A stretch of 64,000 bases of DNA from Candidatus Fervidifonticultor primus. Its GTDB lineage: Bacteria > Sysuimicrobiota > Sysuimicrobiia > Sysuimicrobiales > Humicultoraceae. Location: the NCBI GenBank assembly GCA_031459855.1, contig JAVKHP010000001.1, positions 1,993,078 to 2,057,077 on the forward strand, in the 5' to 3' direction. Position 1 is the stretch's first letter. Every line of letters begins with the position of its first letter. This document shows positions 12,859-53,285 of the stretch, one piece after another. The notes beneath the pieces are model-generated. The model was not told the DNA's origin, did not search any database, and was given only the letters and a program-made list of their open reading frames with translations. The translations under genes and the position numbers were made by a program.

Positions 12859-13204
12859 GGCGTCCTCCACTCCGTCAGGTAGTCTGCCCGCGCCGCGCGG
12901 CGCAGGCCAGCCGGCCCCTTTCGTAGCGTCGGCATGTATCGAACGTGTCACGCCGCCCCAACCGGTGCGGTCCGGGACCCAACACGCCCCCGCGGCCCCG
13001 GGCCGCCCGCGTTGTTGGGGTGGAGGCCGTCGCCCTGCGGCGCGGCGGGCCGCCGATGCCGGCGCCGCGCCGGGCTGCCTGGGCACGGGGGATCACCCCC
13101 TCTGCATCGGATGTGCGGGGCCGCCGCCGACCGGGTCCGGCACCTCGTCCCACCGGCACGGCGGTCTGACGGTGCGATCCCCGCGTGGTAGCCGCGTGTG
13201 CGCG

Positions 13205-14125
13205 CTACGGCGCCACGATGCGGTTGCGCAGCACCCCGATGCCCTCGATCTCGGCTTCCACCACGTCGCCCGGCTGCAACCACGGCGGCGGCGTGCGGCC
13301 CATGGCGACGCCCTCGGGCGTGCCGGTGGCCAGCAGGTCGCCGGGCTCGAGCGTCATGCCCGCAGAGAGCACCGAGATCAGCTGCGCCACCGAGAAGACC
13401 ATGCTGCCCGTGGAGGCGTTCTGGCGTTCCTCGCCGTTGACCCGCAGCCGCAGGCGCAGGTTCTGGGGGTCGGGGATCAGCGACCGGTGGACGACGGCCG
13501 GCCCCAGCGGCGCGAACGTGTCCAGGGACTTCCCCTTGAACCACTGCAGGTGGCGGCGCTGGAGGTCGCGCGCCGTGATGTCGTTCATGATGGTGTACCC
13601 GAAGACGTAGTCCAGCGCGCGCTCGACGGGGATGTCGCGGCCCCGCCGGCCGATGACCACGGTGAGCTCGACCTCGTAGTCGAGCTGCTCGGTCACCCGG
13701 TGGTGGACGACCGGCGCGTCGGGACCCACCACGGCGGTGGGCGGCTTGGTGAAGAACACCGGCACCGTGGGCACCTCGTGCCCGCCCTCGCGGGCGTGCT
13801 CGGCGTAGTTGCGCCCCATGCAGAAGATGTTCTTGCGCGGCCGCGGGATCGGCGCGAGCAGCCGCGTGCGGGCCAGAGGCACCACGAGGCCGCGTGCGCG
13901 GCCCTCCCGCAGGAGCCGGCGGCCCAGCGCGAGGGCAGCCCGGGCCTGCGCCAGGGAGCCTCGCTCGATGAAGCTCACCAGATCGTCGGGGATCTGGTCC
14001 CCGGGGCCGCGTCCGCGTCCGGCGCGGGCGGCCTGGCGGGCCAGGGGGGCGAAGGCGAAGACGTGCTCACCGTCCAGCACCCCCAGGTGCGCCTGGCCCC
14101 GGAACTCGTACGTGACGAACCGCAT
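13205..14125 (-). CDS. Fumarylacetoacetate hydrolase (FAH) family protein
   Basis: 306 aa; ...FCMGRNYAEHA..., ...YEVELTVVIG..., ...LLATGTPEGV... classic FAH-fold motifs. Confidence 0.9.
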   Translation of the reverse strand: MRFVTYEFRGQAHLGVLDGEHVFAFAPLARQAARAGRGRGPGDQIPDDLVSFIERGSLAQARAALALGRRLLREGRARGLVVPLARTRLLAPIPRPRKNIFCMGRNYAEHAREGGHEVPTVPVFFTKPPTAVVGPDAPVVHHRVTEQLDYEVELTVVIGRRGRDIPVERALDYVFGYTIMNDITARDLQRRHLQWFKGKSLDTFAPLGPAVVHRSLIPDPQNLRLRLRVNGEERQNASTGSMVFSVAQLISVLSAGMTLEPGDLLATGTPEGVAMGRTPPPWLQPGDVVEAEIEGIGVLRNRIVAP

Positions 14126-22230: not shown

Positions 22231-23514
22231 ATGCCTGAGTCCATCCTGTTGAAGTGGACGCGCGACGGCGGGGTGCACGACCTGACGGCCTACTGCCGGG
22301 CCGGCGGGTACGCGGCGGCCCGGCGCGTGGCCACGGGCGAGCTGCCGCCGGAGTCGGTGATCGACCTGCTGGTGCAGTCGGGGCTGCGGGGCAAGGGCGG
22401 GGCAGGCTTCCCCACGGGCCAGAAGTGGAAGTTCATCCCCCGCAGCGCCCCGATCAAGTACGTGGTGGTGAACGCCGACGAGGGCGAGCCCGGCACCTTC
22501 AAGGACCGGACGCTCCTGGAAGGCTGCCCGCACCTGCTGATCGAGGGCATCATCATCGCTGCGGTGACCGTGGGGGCCCGCAAGGCGTACGTCTACCTGC
22601 GCCGGGAGTTCCACCGGGCGCGCCGGCTGCTGGAGCAGGCGGTGGCCCAGGCCCGGGCCGCGGGCTTCGTCGGCGAGCGCATCTTCGGGGGCGAGCACAC
22701 CGTGGAGATCGTGGTGCACACCGGCGCCGGTGCCTACATCGCCGGGGAGGAGTCGGCGCTGCTCGAGTCGCTGGAGGGCCGCCGCGCGCTGCCGCGGCTG
22801 CGCCCGCCGTTCCCGGCGCAGGCCGGGCTCTACCAGCAGCCGACGCTGGTGAACAACGTGGAGACCCTCTGTCACGTGCCCGCGATCCTCACGCTGGGCC
22901 CCGAGCGCTACCGCGAGCTGGGCCCGCCCGCGCTGTTCTCCATCAGCGGCCACGTGACCCGCCCCGGGGTCTACGAGCTGCCGCTGGGTACGCCGCTGCG
23001 CGCGATGATCTTCGAGCACGCCGGCGGCCTGCGGCCCGGCCGTCGCGTCCAGGCGGTGTTTCCGGGCGGCTCGTCGTCGATGCTGCTGACCGCCGACCAG
23101 CTGGACGTGCCCATGGACTACGACAGCCTGCGCGCGGTGGGCTCGATGCTGGGGTCGGCGGCGGTGATCGTCATCGACGACTCCGCCGACATCGTCGAGG
23201 TCATCGCCCGCGTCGTCGAGTTCTACCGCGACGAGTCCTGCGGCAAGTGCACGCCCTGCCGCGAGGGCACCGTGTGGATCACCCAGGTGTTCGACCGCCT
23301 GCTGGGCGGCCGGGGCCGCCCCGCAGACCTGGACCTCCTGGAGGGGATCGCCCGGGGCATGACCGGCACGTGTTTCTGCCCCCTGGGCGAGAGCGTGCCG
23401 CCGAGCCTGGTGGCGTCGCTACGCCACTTCCGCCATGCCTACGAGCGCCACATCGCGCGGGCCGGCGCCGGGGTCGCGGCACCGCCCGCTGCAGGAGCTG
23501 CCCATGGCCACTAG
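22231..23514 (+). CDS. nuoF: NADH-quinone oxidoreductase subunit F
   Basis: ...GLRGKGGAGFPTGQKWKF..., ...VVNADEGEPGTFKDR..., ...ESCGKCTPCREG... Confidence 0.95.
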   Translation: MPESILLKWTRDGGVHDLTAYCRAGGYAAARRVATGELPPESVIDLLVQSGLRGKGGAGFPTGQKWKFIPRSAPIKYVVVNADEGEPGTFKDRTLLEGCPHLLIEGIIIAAVTVGARKAYVYLRREFHRARRLLEQAVAQARAAGFVGERIFGGEHTVEIVVHTGAGAYIAGEESALLESLEGRRALPRLRPPFPAQAGLYQQPTLVNNVETLCHVPAILTLGPERYRELGPPALFSISGHVTRPGVYELPLGTPLRAMIFEHAGGLRPGRRVQAVFPGGSSSMLLTADQLDVPMDYDSLRAVGSMLGSAAVIVIDDSADIVEVIARVVEFYRDESCGKCTPCREGTVWITQVFDRLLGGRGRPADLDLLEGIARGMTGTCFCPLGESVPPSLVASLRHFRHAYERHIARAGAGVAAPPAAGAAHGH

Positions 23515-25933
23515 CCCGCCCGAGACCGTGACCCTCACCATCGACGGGCGGACCGTCACCGTGCCCAAGGGCACCACCGTCTACCAGGCGGCGCGCGCCG
23601 CGGGGATCGAGATCCCCATCTTCTGCTATCACGACCGGATGCCCCCGCTGGGGGCCTGCCGCATGTGCCTGGTGAAGGTCGAGAAGATGCCCAAGTTGCA
23701 GACCTCGTGCACGCTGCCCGCGGCCGAGGGCATGGTGGTGGACACCCGCGCGCCGGAGGTGCGGGCCGGGCAGGAGGCCATCCTGGAGTTCCTCCTGATC
23801 AACCACCCGCTGGACTGCCCCGTCTGCGACAAGGGCGGCGAGTGCCCGCTGCAGGATCAGACGCTGCGGTGGGGGCCCGGCCGCAGCCGCTTCGTGGAGG
23901 CCAAGCGCGACTTCGCCAAGCCGGTGGCGCTGGGGCCCGTGCTCGTGCTGGACCGCGAGCGGTGCATCCTGTGCTGGCGGTGCGTCCGGTTCGGCGAACT
24001 GGTCGCCGGCGACCACGCCCTGAAGGGCTTCGCCCGCGGGTTCTCCAGCGAGATCAACACCCCGTTCGCGCTCCCGGTCGAGTCCAAGTTCATCGGGAAC
24101 ACCATCGCCATCTGTCCCGTCGGCGCCCTGACCAGCCGGACCTACCGCTTTCGGGCCCGGCCATGGGACAACCGGCCGGTGGCGTCCACCTGCACGCACT
24201 GCGGGCTGGGCTGCGCGATCTGGCTGGACGTGCGGGGCGACGAGGTGGTGCGCACCCGCGCCCGCGAGCTGGCAGCGATCAACGACATCTGGCTGTGCGA
24301 CCTGGGCTTCTTCGGCCACGACTACGTGGGCGCTCCCGACCGGCTGCGCGCGCCGCTCGTGCGGCGCCACGGGCGGCTCGAGGAGGCCACCTGGGATGAG
24401 GCCCTGGACCTGGTGAGCGCTCGCCTGGCCGACGCCCGCGCCCGCGCGCCCGGGCGCGTGGCGTTCCTGGGCGGCCGGCGCCTGGCCAACGAGGACGTCG
24501 TGCTGGCCGCGGCGCTCTTCCGCGAGGTCGTGGGGACCCCGCACCTCGACCACCGCACCGACGTGCCCGCGGGCAGCCCCAGCCTGGAGGTCGCCTGGGG
24601 CCTGCGGGCGCCGATCGACGAGATCGCGCGCGGCGACGTGTTCGTGCTGGTCGGCTGCGACCTCACCGAGGAGTACCCGGTGCTGTGGCTGCGCCTGAAG
24701 CCGGCGATCGACCGCGGCGCGCGGCTCGTCGTGGTGCACGCCCGGCGGCCCGAGATCGCCCGCTGGGCCCAGTGGACGATCGTGCGTCCCTACGACCGCC
24801 TCGCCCAGGCGGTCATGGAGCTGCGCGCGGCCACGTCCGCTGCCCGGGACGGCCGCGCGACCGCGCTGGCCGCGACGCTCGACCGCGACGCCACGGCGAT
24901 CGCCGCCGCCGGCAGCGCGGTGGCCGCCGGTGGGCGCGTGCACGTCTTCCTGGGCCGCCTTGCCCTCGACGGACCGTCGGGCCGGCCGATCCTGCGCGCT
25001 GCGGCCGATCTGGCGGCGCGGGTCGGCGGCGTGGTGCACGTGCTGCGCGGCCGCGGCAACGACATCGGCGCGCAGCGCCTGGGGCTGCTGCCCGGTGACG
25101 GCGGCTGGACCGCCCCGGAGATCCTGCAGCGCGCGGGAGCGGGCGAGGTGGACGTGCTGTACGTCGCCGGCGCCGATCCCGCCACCGATGCCGCCGATGC
25201 CACCGCCTGGACGTCGGCCCGTGCCGGCGCGCGCTTCGTGGTGGTGCACGACGCGTTCCTCTCGCCGACCGCCGAGACCGCCGACGTGGTGCTGCCGGCG
25301 CTGGTGCTCCCAGAACGCGACGGCACGGTGATGAACCTGGAAGGACGGGTGCTGTCGCTGCGGGCCGCCGTGGTCGGACCCGGGCAGGCGCGGGCGGACG
25401 CCGAGATCTTCGCCCGGCTGGCCGAGCGCCTGGGCGCCGTGCTGGCGCCCGCCGTGCCCGACGAGTTGCTGGCGCGGATGCGCCGGCTGGTGCCCGGGCT
25501 TGCACTGGACGCCGTGGCCCCGATCGAGCCGGTGCGGATGCCTCCGCCCCTGCCCGCTGGCGAGCCCACCGGCACCGGTCCCGGCGGCGACGGGTGGCTC
25601 GTGCTTCCCGTCGACGCGCTGTTCACCCGGGGCACGATGACCGGCCGCTGCCCGGGTATCGCCGGGCTGGCCGGGCCCCCGCGGTGTGTCGTCCATCCCG
25701 ACGACGCGGTCCGCCTGGGGCTGGTCGACGGCGCGCTGGTGGAAGTGGCCACGGACGCGGGTGCGGTGGTGTTGCAGGCGCGGATCAGCGACGAGACGCC
25801 GTCCGGGCAGGTCCTGGTGCCACGGCGGGCCGAAGGCACGCCCGTGGGTCGGCTCGTGCGCTGGCCCCAGATCGCCGCCCGGGGCACGGTGCGGGTGCTG
25901 CTGCCGGCCGCCGCCGCAGGAGGCGGCACATGA
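23504..25933 (+). CDS. nuoG: NADH-quinone oxidoreductase subunit G
   Basis: ...FCYHDRMPPLGACRMCLV..., ...HPLDCPVCDKGGECPLQD...; internal ATG with GGAG upstream, overlaps nuoF end. Confidence 0.95.
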   Translation: MATSPPETVTLTIDGRTVTVPKGTTVYQAARAAGIEIPIFCYHDRMPPLGACRMCLVKVEKMPKLQTSCTLPAAEGMVVDTRAPEVRAGQEAILEFLLINHPLDCPVCDKGGECPLQDQTLRWGPGRSRFVEAKRDFAKPVALGPVLVLDRERCILCWRCVRFGELVAGDHALKGFARGFSSEINTPFALPVESKFIGNTIAICPVGALTSRTYRFRARPWDNRPVASTCTHCGLGCAIWLDVRGDEVVRTRARELAAINDIWLCDLGFFGHDYVGAPDRLRAPLVRRHGRLEEATWDEALDLVSARLADARARAPGRVAFLGGRRLANEDVVLAAALFREVVGTPHLDHRTDVPAGSPSLEVAWGLRAPIDEIARGDVFVLVGCDLTEEYPVLWLRLKPAIDRGARLVVVHARRPEIARWAQWTIVRPYDRLAQAVMELRAATSAARDGRATALAATLDRDATAIAAAGSAVAAGGRVHVFLGRLALDGPSGRPILRAAADLAARVGGVVHVLRGRGNDIGAQRLGLLPGDGGWTAPEILQRAGAGEVDVLYVAGADPATDAADATAWTSARAGARFVVVHDAFLSPTAETADVVLPALVLPERDGTVMNLEGRVLSLRAAVVGPGQARADAEIFARLAERLGAVLAPAVPDELLARMRRLVPGLALDAVAPIEPVRMPPPLPAGEPTGTGPGGDGWLVLPVDALFTRGTMTGRCPGIAGLAGPPRCVVHPDDAVRLGLVDGALVEVATDAGAVVLQARISDETPSGQVLVPRRAEGTPVGRLVRWPQIAARGTVRVLLPAAAAGGGT

Positions 25934-25976: not shown

Positions 25977-26963
25977 GTGACGGGCGCGGTCGCAGCCGCG
26001 GCAGCCAAGAGCGTGGTGCTGCTGGCGTTGCTGCTCACCGCCTGCGCCTACATGACGCTGCTCGAGCGCCGCCTGCTGGCGAAGTTCCAGCTGCGCTACG
26101 GGCCCAACCGGGTCGGTCCCTTCGGCCTGCTCCAGCCCCTGGCCGACGGGATCAAGCTGCTCTTCAAGGAGAGCTTCGTCCCGGCCCGGGCCGACGTGCT
26201 GGTGTACTGGGCGGCGCCGGCGATCTCGATGACCGCCGCGCTGTTCGTGTACGCGGTGCTGCCGCTGGGGCCCGAGATCACGGTGGCCGGGCAGCGGATT
26301 CCCCTCTACCTGGCCGACGTGAACGTGGGCATCCTGCTGGTGCTGGCCGCGTCCTCGATCGGCGTCTACGGCATCATCCTGGGCGGCTGGGCGGCCGACA
26401 ACAAGTACGCGCTGCTGGGCAGCCTGCGCTCCAGCGCGCAGCTCATCAGCTACGAGCTGGCCATCGGGCTCGCGGTGGTGTCGGTGGTCCTGACCGCCGG
26501 CACGCTCAGCCTGGTGGAGATCGTGGAGGCCCAGGCACGGACGTGGTTCGTGGTGCTGCAACCGGTGGGGTTCCTGCTCTTCCTCGTCGGCGCCGTGGCC
26601 GAGACCAACCGCGCGCCGTTCGACCTCCCCGAGGCCGAGCAGGAGCTCATCGCCGGGTTCCAGACCGAGTACGGTGGCTTCAAGTTCGCGATGTTCTACA
26701 TCGGCGAGTACGTCGGCATCGTCACCATGAGCCTGCTGGCCACGACCCTCTTCTTCGGCGGGTGGCACGGGCCGCTGCTGCCCGGGCCGGTGTGGGTCGC
26801 CCTGAAGACCTTGCTGTTCGCGGCGTTCTTCATCTGGCTGCGGGCGGCGGTGCCGCGCGTGCGGCACGACCAGCTGATGGCGCTGGGGTGGAAGGTCCTG
26901 GTGCCCGTGGGGCTGATCAACGTGGTGGTCACGGCGACGCTCGTGGCGCTGCGCGGAGGCTAG
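25977..26963 (+). CDS. nuoH: NADH-quinone oxidoreductase subunit H
   Basis: ...LERRLLAKFQLRYGPNRVGPFGLLQPLADGIKL...; GTG with GGGAGG 7 nt upstream. Confidence 0.95.
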   Translation: MTGAVAAAAAKSVVLLALLLTACAYMTLLERRLLAKFQLRYGPNRVGPFGLLQPLADGIKLLFKESFVPARADVLVYWAAPAISMTAALFVYAVLPLGPEITVAGQRIPLYLADVNVGILLVLAASSIGVYGIILGGWAADNKYALLGSLRSSAQLISYELAIGLAVVSVVLTAGTLSLVEIVEAQARTWFVVLQPVGFLLFLVGAVAETNRAPFDLPEAEQELIAGFQTEYGGFKFAMFYIGEYVGIVTMSLLATTLFFGGWHGPLLPGPVWVALKTLLFAAFFIWLRAAVPRVRHDQLMALGWKVLVPVGLINVVVTATLVALRGG

Positions 26964-27027
26964 GCCGCTGGCGGGGCAGTGGTCGGTGCGCAGCGGGGAA
27001 GAGGCCGCAGGCATCGCCTCCACGGTC

Positions 27028-27129
27028 GGGGGGATCTGGTCCGTGGCCTGGGGGATCCTGCCCGGGGCCGGGGGAATCCTGCGCCCGGCCGGGCAGGGCC
27101 TGGCGCGCGGCGGAGGATCCCGACCCTGG
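27028..27129. repeat. Degenerate tandem repeats (about 20-bp unit GGGGGATCCTG..CCGGGCC, 3-4 copies) in the nuoH-nuoI spacer
   Basis: Three adjacent copies at about 27028-27090 and a partial fourth at about 27112-27129 inside a 195-bp spacer. Confidence 0.5.
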
Positions 27130-27158
27130 ATGGCGCAGTGCGCGGTGGGGTGAGTGCG

Positions 27159-27632
27159 ATGGGGCGGCTGTGGCAGCAGACGGCGGCGCTGGTGCGTGGC
27201 TTGCTGGTGGTGGGCCGCTACGCGCTGCGACGCCCCGTCACGACGCAGTACCCCGACGAGAAGACGCGGGTGGAGGCGCGCTTCAAGGGCCGCCACTGGC
27301 TGACCCGCTACGCCGATGGGCTGGAGCGCTGCGTGGGGTGCGAGCTGTGCGTGATCGTCTGCCCTTCGCAGGCGATCTACGTGAAGGCCGCGGAGAACAC
27401 CCCGGAGCACCAGGTGAGCAAGGGCGAGCGCTACGCCGAGGAGTTCCAGATCAACATGCTGCGCTGCATCTTCTGCGGGTTCTGCGAGGAAGCCTGTCCG
27501 ACGGGGGCCATCGTCCTGGGCCACGAGTACGAGCTGGCCGCCTACAGTCGGGAGGCGATGATCTACACCAAGCCCATGCTCACCGAGCCCTACCCCGGGG
27601 CGTCGGGACGCGACCCGCGGAGGGAGGTCTAG
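27159..27632 (+). CDS. nuoI: NADH-quinone oxidoreductase subunit I
   Basis: ...[12 protein letters not shown]... and ...[12 protein letters not shown]... two 4Fe-4S motifs; internal ATG of track ORF 26979..27632. Confidence 0.95.
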
Positions 27633-27633
27633 C

Positions 27634-28146
27634 GTGGAGTGGGCGGTCTTCCTGGTGGCCGCGGCCCTGGCGCTGGCCGGCGCGGTCGGGGTCGTCGCCG
27701 CCCGGGCGCCGGTGCACAGCGCCCTGGCCCTGCTGGTGGTGCTGGCCGCGCTGGCCGTGACGTACCTGCTGCTGGCCGCCCAGTTCATCGCCGTGCTCCA
27801 GGTCATCGTCTACGCCGGCGCCATCGTCGTGCTGTTCCTGTTCGTGATCATGCTGCTGCACGCGCACTCGGGCGAGGGACCCACCGAGAAGTTGCCGCGC
27901 CAGCGCCGCGCGGCTGCGCTGCTCGCCGCGCTCTACCTGGTGGTGCTCCTGGGGGGGGTGCTGGCGGCGGCCGGTCCGTTCGGACCGCTGCCCGCGGGGT
28001 TCGGCACGGCCCAGCAGGTCGGCGAGGCGCTGTTCCTCACCTACCTGCTGCCCTTCGAACTGGCCTCGGTGCTCCTGCTGGTGGGCATCGTGGCCGCGGT
28101 GGTCCTCGGCCGGCGTCCCGAGGGCCCGTCGGGCGGGACAGGGTGA
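27634..28146 (+). CDS. nuoJ: NADH-quinone oxidoreductase subunit J
   Basis: 170-aa hydrophobic protein, ...[18 protein letters not shown]... NuoJ pattern. Confidence 0.9.
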
Positions 28147-28374
28147 GCCGGGTGCACGCGGACATGGGCATCGGGAACGGCGAGACGGCGAGCACGGGCG
28201 GGCCAGGCGCGCCCGCGGCGTGCGGTGCGGGCGTGCGAGGGCCGGGGAGGGCCGTGGCCCGTGCCCAAGCGGTGCGGATGCGGAGGCACCCGCGTGACGC
28301 TCGGGGACCCGGGCGAGAGGCGGTCGGTGTCGATGCCCGCACCGGGCGGCGCGCCGGCGGGGTAGGGGACTGAG

Positions 28375-28677
28375 ATGGTGCCGGCTGGCGCCTACCTGAC
28401 GCTGAGTGCCGCGCTCTTCGTGCTGGGGGCCGCGGGCGTCCTCGTGCGCCGCAACGCCCTCATCGTCTTCATGAGCGTCGAGGTCATGCTGAACGCCGTC
28501 AACCTGGCGTTCGTGACCTTCGCGCGCCAGCACGGCGCGCCCGATGGGCAGGTGGTCGTCTTCTTCGTGCTGGTGGTGGCCGCCGTCGAGGTGGTCGTGG
28601 GGCTGGCGTTGATCGTGAACATCTTCCGTGCCCGCGCCACCGTCGACATCGATGACGTGGACCTGTTGCGCGGGTAG
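28375..28677 (+). CDS. nuoK: NADH-quinone oxidoreductase subunit K
   Basis: 100 aa; ...[21 protein letters not shown]...[15 protein letters not shown]... Confidence 0.9.
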
Positions 28678-28681
28678 GCCC

Positions 28682-30547
<1,866 letters not shown>

Positions 30548-30548
30548 C

Positions 30549-32249
30549 ATGCTGTCCTGGTTGATCTTCCTGCCTCTTGCCGGTGCCCTGGTGGTGGCGC
30601 TGCTGCCCCGCGACCGCCAGGACCTCGTGCGGTGGGTCGGGCTCGCGGCCAGCCTGGCCACGCTGGCGGTGTTCGCGGCGGTCTGGGTCGCGTTCGACCC
30701 CGCATCGAGCGCGCTGCAGTTCGTGGAGCGCGTCCCGTGGGTGCCGCAGCTGGGCATCGGCTACGCCGTGGGGGTCGACGGGATCTCCCTGCTGCTGGCG
30801 GGCCTGACGGTGGTGACCTTCCCGGTGGCGTTGCTGGGCGCCTGGAGCGACGTCACCGAGCGCGTGAAGGCGTTCACGGTGGCCATGCTGGGGCTGGAGA
30901 CCGCGGTGCTCGGCACGTTCCTCAGCCTGGACCTGATCCTCTTCTACGTCTTCTGGGAAGCCGTGCTGATCCCCATGGCGTTCCTCATCGGGCTGTGGGG
31001 GAGCGAGCACCGCCGCTACGCGGCGCTGAAGTTCTTCCTCTACACGATGGCGGCCAGCGTGCTGATGCTGGTGGCGATCCTGGCGCTCCACGTGCTGGCC
31101 GCCGGCCCGCTGGGCGCCCGGAGCTTCGACCTGGAGCGCCTGGCGACGGTGCGGCTCGCCCCCGCGGTGCAGGGGTGGCTCTTCGCCGCGTTCGCGCTGG
31201 CGTTTGCCGTGAAGGTGCCGGTCTGGCCGTTCCACACCTGGCTGCCCGATGCGCACACCGAGGCACCCACGCCGGGCAGCGTCATCCTGGCCGCCCTGCT
31301 CCTGAAGATGGGCACCTACGGCTTCCTCCGGTTCGGCCCCACGCTGTTCCCCGCGGCCCTGGCGCAGGCCGCGCCGGTGCTGGCAGCGCTGGCCATCGTC
31401 GGCATCCTCTACGGCGCGGCGGTCTCGTGGGCACAGGCCGACCTCAAGCGGCTGGTGGCGTTCTCCAGCGTCAGCCACCTGGGCTTCGTGATGCTGGGCC
31501 TGGCTGCCCTCAACGTGCAGGGCCTGCAGGGCAGCCTGCTCCAGATGGTCAACCACGGCATCAGCACCGGCGCGCTGTTCCTCATCGTGGGGGTGCTGTA
31601 CGAGCGCACCCACACGCGCCGGCTCGCCGACTACGGCGGGGTCGCGGCGCTGATGCCGCGGTTTGCCGCGGTGTTCACCATCGTCATGCTGTCGTCGGCG
31701 GCGCTGCCCGGGACCAACGGCTTCGCCGGCGAGTTCCTGATCCTGCTCGGCGCGTTCCGCACCTCGCGCTGGTGGGCAGCGCTGGCCGCCGGCGGGGTGA
31801 TCCTCTCGGTGGTGTACCTGCTGTGGGCCTACCAGCAGGTGATGCACGGCCCGGTGCGGGCAGCCCAGCGCGAGCGGCTGGTCGACCTGCGGCCCCGCGA
31901 GCTGGTGGTGTTCGCGCCGCTGCTGGTCCTGATCGTCGTCATCGGCCTGTACCCGCGCCTGCTGCTCGACCGCTCGGAGGCCACCGTCGCCGCGGTCGTG
32001 CAGCGGGTGGCGGCGGGAGCGCCACCAGCCGCTGTGGCGGGCGCGCCGGTGCCCGTCGGGCGTGAGGTGCATCCTGCACCTCGTGCCCATGGCGCGGGCG
32101 TGGCGCCGGTCCCCCGGCGGCCTGCAGACCGGGGATTCCCCACGCCTGCATCCACGTGGCAGCAGCCGCAGTCGGGTACGTCCCAGGATACGCTACGACC
32201 GATGCGATCCGCGCCCCAGACGGCGAGCAGCCGGGAGCCCGTGCGATGA
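30549..32249 (+). CDS. nuoM: NADH-quinone oxidoreductase subunit M, with roughly 75-aa low-complexity C-terminal extension
   Basis: ...FYVFWEAVLIPMAFLIGLWG..., ...VPVWPFHTWLPDAHTEAPTPGSV...; frame continues without a stop to 32249 where it overlaps nuoN ATG (ATGA). Confidence 0.9.
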   Translation: MLSWLIFLPLAGALVVALLPRDRQDLVRWVGLAASLATLAVFAAVWVAFDPASSALQFVERVPWVPQLGIGYAVGVDGISLLLAGLTVVTFPVALLGAWSDVTERVKAFTVAMLGLETAVLGTFLSLDLILFYVFWEAVLIPMAFLIGLWGSEHRRYAALKFFLYTMAASVLMLVAILALHVLAAGPLGARSFDLERLATVRLAPAVQGWLFAAFALAFAVKVPVWPFHTWLPDAHTEAPTPGSVILAALLLKMGTYGFLRFGPTLFPAALAQAAPVLAALAIVGILYGAAVSWAQADLKRLVAFSSVSHLGFVMLGLAALNVQGLQGSLLQMVNHGISTGALFLIVGVLYERTHTRRLADYGGVAALMPRFAAVFTIVMLSSAALPGTNGFAGEFLILLGAFRTSRWWAALAAGGVILSVVYLLWAYQQVMHGPVRAAQRERLVDLRPRELVVFAPLLVLIVVIGLYPRLLLDRSEATVAAVVQRVAAGAPPAAVAGAPVPVGREVHPAPRAHGAGVAPVPRRPADRGFPTPASTWQQPQSGTSQDTLRPMRSAPQTASSREPVR

Positions 32250-37139: not shown

Positions 37140-37201
37140 GCGGTGACAGCCGCATAGTGGTGGCGATGGAGCTCGCCAAGCGCCCGGGCGTGCGGGCTGA
37201 T

Positions 37202-37240
37202 AGCTCCTACTGACCGGCAGGTCGGTAGGAGCTTTTTGAT
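37202..37240 (+). terminator. Rho-independent terminator downstream of the FAD-oxidase gene
   Basis: AGCTCCTAC-T-GACC [GGCA] GGTC-G-GTAGGAGCT giving a 14-bp stem (one U-G wobble) followed by TTTTT. Confidence 0.7.
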
Positions 37241-40435: not shown

Positions 40436-41638
40436 TCAGTCCGCGCCCGTCGTCGCCAGGGCCGTGCTCGACTCCGCCTTGCCCGTCGCCTCGGCGAGGT
40501 GGCGGACCGGGAGGAAGAACCGGTTGGCGATCCAGGTGGGTACCACGGCGCTGGCGATCACCGTCGCCACCAGGAAGGAGTACTGGGCCGGAGTGATGAT
40601 GCCGTGCGACAGGCCGTACAGCGCCGAGATGGTGCCGAACGTGAGGCCGGTGGACATGAGCAGGGTAGTGTACATGCCCTCGGCGTGGGGGTAGCGGTAG
40701 AGGCGGGTCAGGGGGAAGATGCCCACGAACTTACTGACGGCCTTGGCCAGGAAGAGCACCGCGAAGATCCCCGGCGCACCGGCCACCACCGGGACGTTCA
40801 CGAGCGCGCCCGCCCGGAGGAAGTAGAACGGGGTCAGCAGCCCGAAGGTCAGGGTGCGCAGCCGCCGCACCAGCGCATGCTCCCGGCCGACAGTCCCCGC
40901 CAGGACCATGCCGAGGAGGTAGGCCGGGAGGACGGCTTCCGAGCCCGACCACACCGCCAGCCCGCCCAGCACGAACAGCGAGAAGAGCAGGAACCTGGCC
41001 TCGAGTTCCGAGGTACGCCCGCCGTACCGCGCGAAGAACGGACCGGTGGCCCTGAAGAGCACGACCAGCGCGGCCAGTAGCGCGCCAGTGAAGACGAGCG
41101 TGCGCGGCCCAAACGGCGCGAAGATGATGCCCAACGCTACGACCGTGCCGAGGTCGTTGATGAAGCACGCGGCCAGGATGACCTTGCCAAACGGCGACCG
41201 GTTGAGCCCCAGCTCCACCATCACCGCGTAGACGACCGCCACGGACGTCGTCGAGAGGGCCACCCCGGCCAGGAGGCTGGCCTGGAGGTCCCATCCCAAG
41301 AGGGTCCGTGCGGCCCACGCGGCTCCCAGGAACGGAGCCAGGAACCCGACCAGCCCCACGGCCGTCGCTTCCCGCCAGCTGCGGCGAAATGCGTCGGGGT
41401 CGAGTTCCACCCCGGCCAGGAACGTGAGCACGATCGACCCCAGTCCGGCGAGGAAGGCGATCCAGTCGCGGCGCACGCCCAGCGCGTCCACCCCGAGCAG
41501 GGTGCTGAAGACCACCTGCGCGACGGTGCCGACGACGATCTCCGCAAGCGCCACCGAGACCTTGAGCCAGGTGGACAGCAGCGTGGCGATGAGCGCGAGG
41601 CCCAGCCAGACGGCCGCACTGAACCACACGTGGTCCAT
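40436..41638 (-). CDS. Cation:proton antiporter (CPA2 / Na+-H+ exchanger family)
   Basis: ...LGLALIATLLSTWLKVSVALAEIVVG... and overall 400-aa hydrophobic pattern of KefB/NapA-type exchangers; ATG at 41638 inside track ORF 40436..41707. Confidence 0.85.
   Translation of the reverse strand: MDHVWFSAAVWLGLALIATLLSTWLKVSVALAEIVVGTVAQVVFSTLLGVDALGVRRDWIAFLAGLGSIVLTFLAGVELDPDAFRRSWREATAVGLVGFLAPFLGAAWAARTLLGWDLQASLLAGVALSTTSVAVVYAVMVELGLNRSPFGKVILAACFINDLGTVVALGIIFAPFGPRTLVFTGALLAALVVLFRATGPFFARYGGRTSELEARFLLFSLFVLGGLAVWSGSEAVLPAYLLGMVLAGTVGREHALVRRLRTLTFGLLTPFYFLRAGALVNVPVVAGAPGIFAVLFLAKAVSKFVGIFPLTRLYRYPHAEGMYTTLLMSTGLTFGTISALYGLSHGIITPAQYSFLVATVIASAVVPTWIANRFFLPVRHLAEATGKAESSTALATTGAD
41351..41391. 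repeat. 41-bp repeat copy 1, inside the antiporter coding sequence
   Basis: About 90% identical (37/41) to 47281..47321; here it encodes ...DAFRRSWREATAVG... of the antiporter. Confidence 0.5.
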
Positions 41639-42077
41639 GGGTACGCTCCTGTGGGGTAGCGGCACGCGACGGGCGGCCCCTACCCGCGGAATGTGGGTAG
41701 GAGCCATCAGCCCGAAGAGGGCGGTTCAGGCGGGCCCCATCGCCTGGGCTGGATTATAGGTGCTCCCGGGAGAGTGCGTCCAGTCCTCCTGGCCGCAGAG
41801 GCCATCCTCGTCGCAGGGGTCACCGGCATCCGGCCGTACCAGGCCCCGCGGCGACCGTAGCGGCGCATCACCCGCGCCACACCAGGTTGTTACCCAGGGC
41901 TGCAGAGCCGCTGGCAGTAGACTCTGCGCACCTCTCGCGTCCGTATTCGGGATGCTGCGGCGCGCGCATGACGCGGAAAGCGCTCTGGGGGAGAGGCGGT
42001 GTGCATCTTCTGGCCCGGGGGAGATGGCCCTGACCTTACGCCATCAAGTTAGATGGCGGATGGCGCGATTCGCGCGG

Positions 42078-47280: not shown

Positions 47281-47321
47281 CAAGCCCACGGCCGTCGCTT
47301 GCCGCTAGCTGCGGCGAAATG
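47281..47321. repeat. 41-bp repeat copy 2, between IclR gene end and IS fragment
   Basis: About 90% identical to 41351..41391; a mismatch creates the TAG that ends the truncated transposase ORF. Confidence 0.5.
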
Positions 47322-47781: not shown

Positions 47782-47886
47782 CTCTTATCAAGAGTGGGTG
47801 AGGGACGGGCCCGATGACCCCCGGCAACCTGCCGCCGCCGCGGTAAGGTGCCAAGCCCCGCGGAACCCAGTTCCGGCGGATAAGAG
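47782..47886 (+). promoter_or_regulatory. SAM-I (S-box) riboswitch aptamer
   Basis: CTCTTATCAAGAG..GGGTGAGGGAC.GGCCCGATGA..CCCGGCAACC...GGTGCCAA..CCCGCGGAA...GGATAAGAG: P1 pairing and conserved S-box core elements; candidate promoter TTGACG-17-TAGTTT at about 47730-47758. Confidence 0.8.
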
Positions 47887-50655: not shown

Positions 50656-52725
<2,070 letters not shown>

Positions 52726-52739
52726 GGCGGGAGGCAGGC

Positions 52740-53285
52740 GTGCAGCGGGGAGCGGGCGAGCGACGGAGAGGGGGCGTGCGGCGGGTCCTCCTCTGGGCCC
52801 TGGTACTCGTCGTCGCGGCGGTCGTGCTGTGGTGGACGCAGCTGCGGCCGCGCGAGGCGCGCGTCGAGGTGTTCTTCGTAGGGCCGGCCGACGGCGGCAC
52901 CACACTGGTGCCGGTCGCGCGCAGGGTGTCCGGGCGGCGAGCGGACGAGCTCCTGACGGCAGCGCTCGAGGCCCTGCTGGCCGGGCCCACACCGGAGGAA
53001 CGCGCCCGGGGCCTGGGCACCGAGATCCCCGCGGGCACGCGGCTGCGCGCGCTGCAGCTGCGCGAAGGAGTGGTGGTGGTCGACCTGAGCGGCGAGGTGG
53101 AACGCGGCGGCGGCGCGACCAGCATGCAGGCGCGGCTGTGGCAGCTGGTCTACACCGCCACCCAGCTACCGGATGCCCGGCAGGTCCGGCTCCTCATCGA
53201 CGGGGAGGCGCGACCGGCTCTGGGCGGTGAGGGGCTGGTGATCGATCGGCCCCTCGGGCGTCCGCCCGTGTTCCCCCGGTTCTGA
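52740..53285 (+). CDS. GerMN-domain protein (membrane-anchored)
   Basis: N-terminal anchor ...RRVLLWALVLVVAAVVLWW... then GerMN-like ...LTAALEALLAGPTPEERARGLGTEIPAGTRL...; GTG with GGGAGG 6 nt upstream (alternative GTG at 52776). Confidence 0.6.
   Translation: MQRGAGERRRGGVRRVLLWALVLVVAAVVLWWTQLRPREARVEVFFVGPADGGTTLVPVARRVSGRRADELLTAALEALLAGPTPEERARGLGTEIPAGTRLRALQLREGVVVVDLSGEVERGGGATSMQARLWQLVYTATQLPDARQVRLLIDGEARPALGGEGLVIDRPLGRPPVFPRF

Follow-up and report, generated by a model that had tools for sequence, protein, structure and literature searches.

We found that nuoH and nuoI, two genes of the complex I (nuo) operon, are separated by a 195-nt spacer that is a lineage-specific insertion: the closest relative lacks it, and a homologous spacer occupies the same junction in a sister clade. 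The DNA analysed (the window) is a stretch of 64,000 nucleotides with a G+C content of 72%, and the operon lies on its plus strand. On balance, and with moderate confidence, we read the spacer as tolerated, slippage-prone and largely unconstrained intercistronic filler, which would uncouple translation of nuoI from that of nuoH. It adds a new case to a known kind of feature, the hypervariable, repeat-containing intercistronic spacer, and as such a real, if modest, finding. As a case study, it would illustrate the uptake of about 200 nt of non-coding DNA, ending in a new ribosome-binding site, by a tightly coupled junction in an essential respiratory operon, after which such junctions vary by indels between strains that are 94–97% identical.

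The host of the operon belongs to the hot-spring phylum CSP1-3/Sysuimicrobiota (PMC11604079). The closest public metagenome-assembled genomes are labelled Candidatus Fervidifonticultor, 'Armatimonadota bacterium' or 'Firmicutes bacterium'.

The nuoH–nuoI junction in the window and its relatives

The features discussed below are listed in Table 1. The first-pass annotation had claimed a spacer of 195 bp between nuoH and nuoI, and the gene borders confirm it, from the end of the nuoH TAG at 26963 to the nuoI ATG at 27159. Indeed, the NuoH protein of the sister clade was matched by tblastn over residues 1–328 at 25977–26960, and the best 120 NuoI homologues, each of about 157 amino acids, align from the ATG at 27159 onwards.

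Table 1. Coordinates of the features in the window
Feature	Position	Strand	Details
nuoG	about 23504–25933	+	
nuoH	25977–26963	+	328 aa; TAG at 26961–26963; Pfam NADHdh, E = 1.3e-120
GGAGG within the final nuoH codons	26955–26959	+	seen from the L092, L089 and L090 junctions
Intercistronic spacer, non-coding	26964–27158	+	195 nt; 78% GC; sense strand 48% G, 30% C
Segment missing from L092	26964–27153	+	190 nt; breakpoint ambiguous by 1 nt
Three good 21-nt units	27029–27091	+	GGGGRATCYKG...GGCCK; TRF and register
Two more degenerate 21-nt units, same register	27092–27133	+	register print-out
Best-conserved internal block	27078–27112	+	CCTGCGCNCGGCCGGGCAGG-N4-GGCGCGCGGCG; alignments A1 and A2, pair table
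Replacement Shine-Dalgarno-like motif (putative)	27147–27154	+	GGGGTGAG; 4 nt upstream of the nuoI ATG
nuoI	27159–27632	+	157 aa; ATG at 27159
nuoJ	27634–28146	+	
J–K spacer	28147–28374		228 nt; 80% GC; 50% G on the sense strand; no coding phase signature
nuoK	28375–28677	+	
nuoL	28682–30547	+	
L–M junction	30547–30551		TAG-C-ATG (1 nt); insert of 141–146 nt in the sister clade
M–N gap	32040–32203		about 164 nt; 4-nt overlap in the sister clade; gene ends approximate

We compared this junction with those of relatives (Table 2). The median gap between nuoH and nuoI was 32 nt in the 142 loci fetched, in agreement with the earlier remark that nuo genes are usually tightly packed. Of the relatives whose NuoI is at least 68% identical (68–93%), nearly all have a gap of 2–40 nt, and most of those at 72–93% one of 2–16 nt. 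Since most relatives have a gap of 2–16 nt and L092 one of 5 nt, we take the tight gap as the ancestral state. In the short-gap relatives a GGAGG within the last codons of nuoH lies no more than 9 nt from the nuoI start and is their nuoI Shine-Dalgarno; the junctions of L089 and L090 read GGAGGCTAG-CCG(G)-GTG. A Shine-Dalgarno placed in the last codons of the upstream gene, near the next start, is the classic arrangement of translationally coupled genes.

Table 2. The nuoH–nuoI gap in the window and in its relatives
Sequence	nuoH+I+J nucleotide identity to the window	NuoI identity	nuoH–nuoI gap
Window	reference		195 nt
L092	97.4%	100%	5 nt (GGAGGCTAG-GTGCG-ATG)
Sister clade (14 assemblies: L081–L088, L173–L178)	93.5–94.1%	99%	153 or 159 nt
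L179	88.4%	in the same 90% cluster as P0001	3 nt
L089	86.0%	93%	4 nt
L090	79.5%	88%	3 nt
L093–L095		85–87%	2–4 nt

L092, with an identical NuoI, is the closest relative of the window, and the two form a filled and an empty site: TAG, 190 nt and GTGCG-ATG in the window versus TAG-GTGCG-ATG in L092. The sister-clade spacer aligns with that of the window over its full length, except for one exact gap of 42 nt, which is twice 21 nt. The comparison with relatives proposed in the first-pass annotation thus yielded junctions mostly of 2–40 nt together with a homologous spacer of 153 or 159 nt in the sister clade. The junction, whose alleles are 5, 153, 159 and 195 nt long, is usable as a strain marker for these hot-spring populations. 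Two relatives that are more distant carry unrelated inserts between nuoH and nuoI: one of 79 nt in L004 (2922–3000), made of 7-nt tandem repeats (GTTGGTC four times, then GAGTCAC four times), and one of 115 nt in L006 (2346–2460), containing a long inverted repeat (hairpin).

The distribution of the spacer does not follow the tree in a simple way: in the pattern ((window, L092), sister clade) it is present in the window and the sister clade and absent from L092, and the outgroups are without it. This pattern calls for a precise loss in L092, for recombination that gave L092 the junction of a spacer-less relative, for transfer of the filled allele, or for two gains. At four sites upstream of the spacer (26543, 26747, 26814 and 26815) L092 matches the outgroup while the window matches the sister clade, a hint, from sites too few to decide the matter, that L092 may have acquired its spacer-less junction through recombination.

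Tandem units and length changes

The spacer contains a tandem array, which TRF placed at 27023–27093 with a period of 21, 3.4 copies, 76% matches and a score of 72, the top score among the 15 arrays of the window. In register, the units read GGGGGATCTGGTCCGTGGCCT from 27029, GGGGGATCCTGCCCGGGGCCG from 27050 and GGGGAATCCTGCGCCCGGCCG from 27071. Compared with dinucleotide shuffles, the self-match of the spacer stood out at an offset of 21 (z = 4.7) and of 42 (z = 4.0), and the observed self-match of 0.49 equals the maximum reached at any offset across 200 shuffles. The first-pass annotation had described three to four degenerate tandem units of 20 bp; the array held up, and the period is 21 rather than 20.

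The 21-nt periodicity was found in the window spacer only, and the sister spacer is without it. As the sister spacer is shorter by exactly two units (42 nt), the triplication is, judged by the alignment, specific to the lineage of the window. In the sister clade, a 6-nt duplication of GCCCGT in L081 and L173–L178 gives the 159-nt form. Both length changes, of 42 and of 6 nt, look like replication slippage, and the 21-nt triplet and the GCCCGT duplication would then be separate slippage events. The spacer has what defines intergenic minisatellites (VNTRs) that arise by slippage, namely head-to-tail units beyond chance and a length difference from the sister that amounts to whole units. It resembles them in its short head-to-tail unit, in the lack of coding or structural signal, and in copy number differing between close lineages (three units versus one, besides the 6-nt duplication in some sister strains). 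It differs from them in that the array lies within a larger insert of 150–190 nt, and in that a translationally coupled junction, in an essential respiratory operon, has given way to this insert.

Elsewhere in the window, at another purine-rich junction (52720–52785), there is an 18-nt G-rich tandem array of 3.7 copies (GCGTGCGGCGGGGAGCGG), which begins at the stop codon of an ORF resembling NAD-dependent DNA ligase (the ORF ends at 52725) and extends into the start of the next gene.

Rapid divergence and a conserved 3' end

Of 153 aligned positions, 51 (33%) differ between the spacers of the window and the sister, as compared with 84 of 658 third codon positions in the flanking genes (12.8%), so that the spacer has diverged about 2.6 times as much as flanking third positions. 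Within the sister clade, too, the rate of change in the spacer is several times that in the genes. Conservation is clearest in the motif GGGGTGAG just ahead of nuoI, which is invariant across every spacer-bearing sequence. It contains a TGA (27151–27153) located 5 nt from the ATG, which is the ancestral spacing of the nuoH TAG. It is plausible, from its sequence and position, that this motif acts as a substitute Shine-Dalgarno for nuoI.

In one comparison within the sister clade (L173 3857–3880 versus L083 3863–3886), about ten adjacent substitutions are clustered; they convert GGCCAGGGCC to a perfect palindrome, GGCCATGGCC, and rewrite the following 12 nt. Such a change is the pattern expected of template switching in a quasi-palindrome.

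We propose that a non-coding insertion entered a formerly tight, translationally coupled nuoH–nuoI junction, and that the spacer is most likely transcribed within the operon mRNA; we found no promoter-like or terminator-like sites within it. The insert would displace the old GGAGG in nuoH to about 200 nt from nuoI, and its 3' end would provide the new Shine-Dalgarno. With the old signal moved away and a new one supplied, nuoI would be initiated independently rather than by coupling. The remaining G+C-rich filler would be under little or no sequence constraint, close to neutral, and free to change by rapid substitution and slippage.

Several observations count against plain filler. The insert has lasted through about 6% coding divergence, which separates the window from the sister clade, and is present in every sister-clade assembly; such persistence of useless DNA is unexpected given the usual deletion bias of bacteria. 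A conserved block at 27078–27112, whose ends can pair, is a second such observation, and spacer lengths (195, 153 and 159) that are all multiples of three are a third. Finally, presence in the window and sister clade with absence from L092 also counts against it, because plain neutral decay explains none of a precise loss, a replacement or two gains.

RNA structure

The persistence of the spacer and its conserved pairable block keep a functional hairpin as an alternative to filler. The spacer could be an intercistronic RNA element with one or more REP/BIME-like hairpins in the operon mRNA, which would block 3'–5' exonucleases or mark a processing site and so set the output of nuoH versus the downstream membrane-arm genes, the repeat copy number being the tuning knob. 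We regard this as unlikely, though still worth weighing. For the spacer with its flanks, the predicted fold is highly stable, with −118 kcal/mol at 37 °C and still −82 kcal/mol when computed for 65 °C. This stability is, however, explained by base composition alone. Indeed, the sense strand with its flanks folded at −118.5 kcal/mol versus a mean of −114.7 kcal/mol for dinucleotide shuffles (z = −0.87); z was +0.72 for the sister spacer and −1.40 for the antisense strand.

The ends of the conserved block can form an 8–9-bp GC stem, and RNAalifold on the four distinct spacer sequences predicted 53 pairs, of which 7 have both partners changed. The built-in controls, by shuffling and sliding, were favourable, although the structure was derived from the same sequences, which really represent two lineages. 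When alignment columns were shuffled, the consensus energy was unexceptional (z = −0.40) and 22 of 300 shuffles reached 7 compensatory pairs (mean 4.2±1.6), so that conservation of structure, in the block as elsewhere, is not above this null. In addition, the apex of the hairpin falls at non-homologous positions in the window and the sister. That the spacer is kept across the sister clade in many samples, and that the operon has another G-rich spacer at J–K, would fit a hairpin with a role; against this, a 97% identical strain, L092, does without it.

Scanning the whole window with Rfam at gathering thresholds gave no match in the spacer region, and a search of the region with Rfam 15 at a permissive E-value returned only mir-645, whose 15.6 bits fall far short of the gathering score of 90 (E = 7.6). 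The suggestion of a structured RNA in the first-pass annotation is therefore not supported: no Rfam family matches, folding energies are no better than those of shuffled sequence (z of −0.87 and +0.72), and covariation does not exceed the column-shuffle null. A G-quadruplex was also considered and rejected, as a G4-aware fold left the duplex of the minimum free energy structure unchanged.

Like the REP/BIME sequences of enterobacteria (Higgins et al. 1982; Stern et al. 1984, 1988, cited in PMC3184786; for REPIN/RAYT, PMC3116915), the spacer is a GC-rich extragenic sequence within an operon that can form stem-loops, varies between strains and could in principle stabilise upstream mRNA. REPs, however, are conserved palindromes of about 21–65 bp, which occur in tens to hundreds of copies and are moved by RAYT transposases; the spacer is unique in everything searched and folds no better than shuffled sequence, and the stem that its conserved block can form is not conserved above the column-shuffle null. 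If transcripts showed hairpins setting the stoichiometry of complex I subunits, the finding would matter more.

Origin of the insert

The clean filled and empty sites, the initiation context brought by the insert itself, and a flanked insert between nuoL and nuoM of the sister clade keep a MIRU-like origin as a further alternative, one that we consider improbable. The spacer would be a small non-autonomous mobile insert, MIRU-like or derived from IS200/IS605, that targets stop–start junctions; its own ribosome-binding end would make it tolerated, and precise excision would be possible. Besides the filled and empty sites of the window and L092, such an element would account for a spacer whose two carrier lineages are not most closely related to one another, for the GCATG direct repeat around the sister L–M insert (141–146 nt), and for an end that combines a Shine-Dalgarno with a TGA at the ancestral spacing, where a mini-ORF of 7–8 codons stops. 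This end recalls MIRUs, which are inserted at start codons and carry a coupled ORF (PMC12548453, PMC3184786). The start of the mini-ORF, however, is not conserved, being ATG at 27130 in the window and GTG in the sister. The H–I insert has neither terminal inverted repeats nor a target-site duplication, its ends being GCCGCTGG... and ...GGGGTGA with 1 nt of microhomology at the breakpoint, and the H–I, J–K and L–M inserts share no sequence or termini.

Against this origin, too, we found no further copies in the material searched. Pattern search, blastn-short and self-blast revealed no second copy of the spacer or its unit in the 64-kb window, a weak negative given that the window makes up only about 2% of the genome (roughly 3 Mb). 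In Smith-Waterman comparisons with the rest of the window and with 20 kb of the sister locus, the best match (13987–14041) lay in a coding region and was marginal (reached by 3 of 60 shuffles). There was no match to the spacer or unit among PLSDB plasmids or INPHARED phages, and five 19-mer matches in IMG/VR viral contigs extend only to 20–26 nt, as expected by chance. A metagenome scan with a 26-base core pattern gave no match in a collection that is without the samples of the known JGI sister contigs, and the protein scan that followed it found nothing closer than 87%. The small dispersed repetitive element suggested earlier thus lacks any other copy in the 64-kb window or in the plasmid, phage and viral collections. 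Should genome-wide searches reveal a dispersed family, an uncultivated phylum would have gained a new mobile element, and the finding would matter more.

Derivation from neighbouring sequence fared no better, as similarity of the insert to the nuoH 3' end, the nuoI 5' end or the J–K spacer was not above shuffles. When anchored on the right, the last 36 nt of the insert resembled the last 32 nt of nuoH in the window (empirical p = 0.02) and not in the sister (p = 0.34), which is at most a hint that the 3' end of the insert may derive from the 3' end of nuoH, the resemblance being confined to the window.

The MIRU and MIRU-VNTR loci of Mycobacterium tuberculosis (Supply et al. 1997, via PMC3184786 and PMC12548453) share with the spacer a high-G+C host and repeats between co-transcribed operon genes, filled and empty sites with tandem copy number varying between strains (here 195 versus 153/159 versus 5 nt), and an insert end that leaves the downstream gene a usable initiation context. 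They differ in having units of 40–100 bp at about 40–50 loci per genome, as against 21 nt and no second locus found, and in an ORF that overlaps the flanking genes (−4), with short direct and imperfect terminal inverted repeats, of which the spacer has no conserved equivalents. Indeed, we found no internal ORF of the MIRU type, since the TGA at 27151–27153 lies 5 nt before the ATG without overlap and no ORF begins at the nuoH stop. MITEs differ as well, as the spacer ends have no inverted repeats and no target-site duplication. Among defining features of these families, the spacer lacks, in the material searched, the dispersed copies of REPs, the long units, many loci and overlapping ORF of MIRUs, the inverted repeats and target-site duplication of MITEs, and a match to any Rfam family.

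Variable inserts at other nuo junctions

Strain-variable inserts are also present at the J–K junction, at L–M (sister only) and at M–N (window only), and when the window and the sister were compared over 18 kb, almost every indel of at least 6 nt fell at a gene junction. The J–K gap of the sister has 163 nt, as against 81 nt in L179, about 75 nt in L092 and 2 nt in L090; L089 instead has a NuoJ that is longer by 36 amino acids. The sister L–M insert (L083 7322–7468; L181 13322–13468) is flanked by GCATG direct repeats, contains a 15-nt direct repeat, GGAGGTCCGC(C/G)ACGG, with the copies 69 nt apart, and ends in GAGGGAGCGGC (GAGGGAG) ahead of the ATG. The M–N gap is not G-rich (36% G, 38% C). 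Comparing the junction inserts with each other revealed no common sequence. It is conceivable, but in our view quite improbable, that the H–I, J–K, L–M and M–N inserts make up an undescribed class of small Sysuimicrobiota insertions at the stop–start junctions of operons, which would supply their own Shine-Dalgarno and stop and exit precisely; were it so, a MIRU-like lifestyle would exist in an uncultivated thermophilic phylum.

Coding potential and assembly

We give hardly any credence to a protein-coding spacer, be it as an N-terminal extension of NuoI (an ORF of 217 amino acids from the GTG at 26979), as a separate protein of 55 amino acids (26986–27153), or as a NuoH–linker–NuoI fusion made by read-through of the in-frame TAG. 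All reading frames are open, and nuoH, the spacer and nuoI share one frame, with lengths of 195, 153 and 159 nt that are all multiples of three. Open frames are, however, expected at 78% GC, and chance, at roughly 1 in 27 for the lengths, is a sufficient explanation of the shared frame, which carries little weight against the other evidence. The best 120 homologues, of about 157 amino acids, cover only about 72% (65–77%) of the 217-residue ORF. By codon phase the GC content of the spacer is 0.89/0.74/0.71, with a GC3 of 0.71 in the shared frame, and no spacer frame has the pattern of the true genes here (GC3 0.94–0.98, GC2 0.36–0.55). Substitutions between the window and the sister are distributed 10/24/17 by codon phase, which is not coding-like, the two translations are unrelated in each frame, the 55-residue ORF has no start codon in the sister, and the six translations have no Pfam match. 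The NuoI extension and the small ORF are thus rejected on homologue lengths, phase GC, substitutions, non-conservation and Pfam. The first-pass annotation had held that its reading would fall if the unit were absent elsewhere and the region simply extended NuoI in relatives; the unit is indeed absent from everything searched, but the homologues start at 27159.

The stretch from TAG through the spacer to ATG is one frame with no in-frame stop both in the window (26961–27161) and in L083 (3845–4003), and the open span is 65 codons in the window and 51 and 53 in the sister forms.

That the window is mis-assembled here, or that the deletion in L092 is spurious, is scarcely believable: L092 is a 3.1-kb contig from a third-party metagenome assembly and tandem repeats are prone to mis-assembly, but the homologous spacer recurs in 14 independent assemblies (NCBI, JGI, ENA and Logan), the L092 junction is of the ancestral type of L089, L090, L179 and L093–L095, and an assembler would not drop 190 unique bases and yet leave a functional junction.

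Other features of the window

The Rfam scan at gathering thresholds detected a SAM (S-box) riboswitch at 47782–47886 on the plus strand (85.7 bits) and two fluoride (crcB) riboswitches, at 41691–41753 on the minus strand and 37153–37216 on the plus strand (56.8 and 37.9 bits, respectively). A 37-nt direct repeat, 94.6% identical, occurs at 47285–47321 and 41355–41391, about 6 kb apart; the former copy is intergenic and lies upstream of the SAM-riboswitch region. ARAGORN called a tRNA-Asn (anticodon GTT) at 12923–13016 on the minus strand, which at 94 nt is unusually long and may be a miscall or an atypical tRNA.
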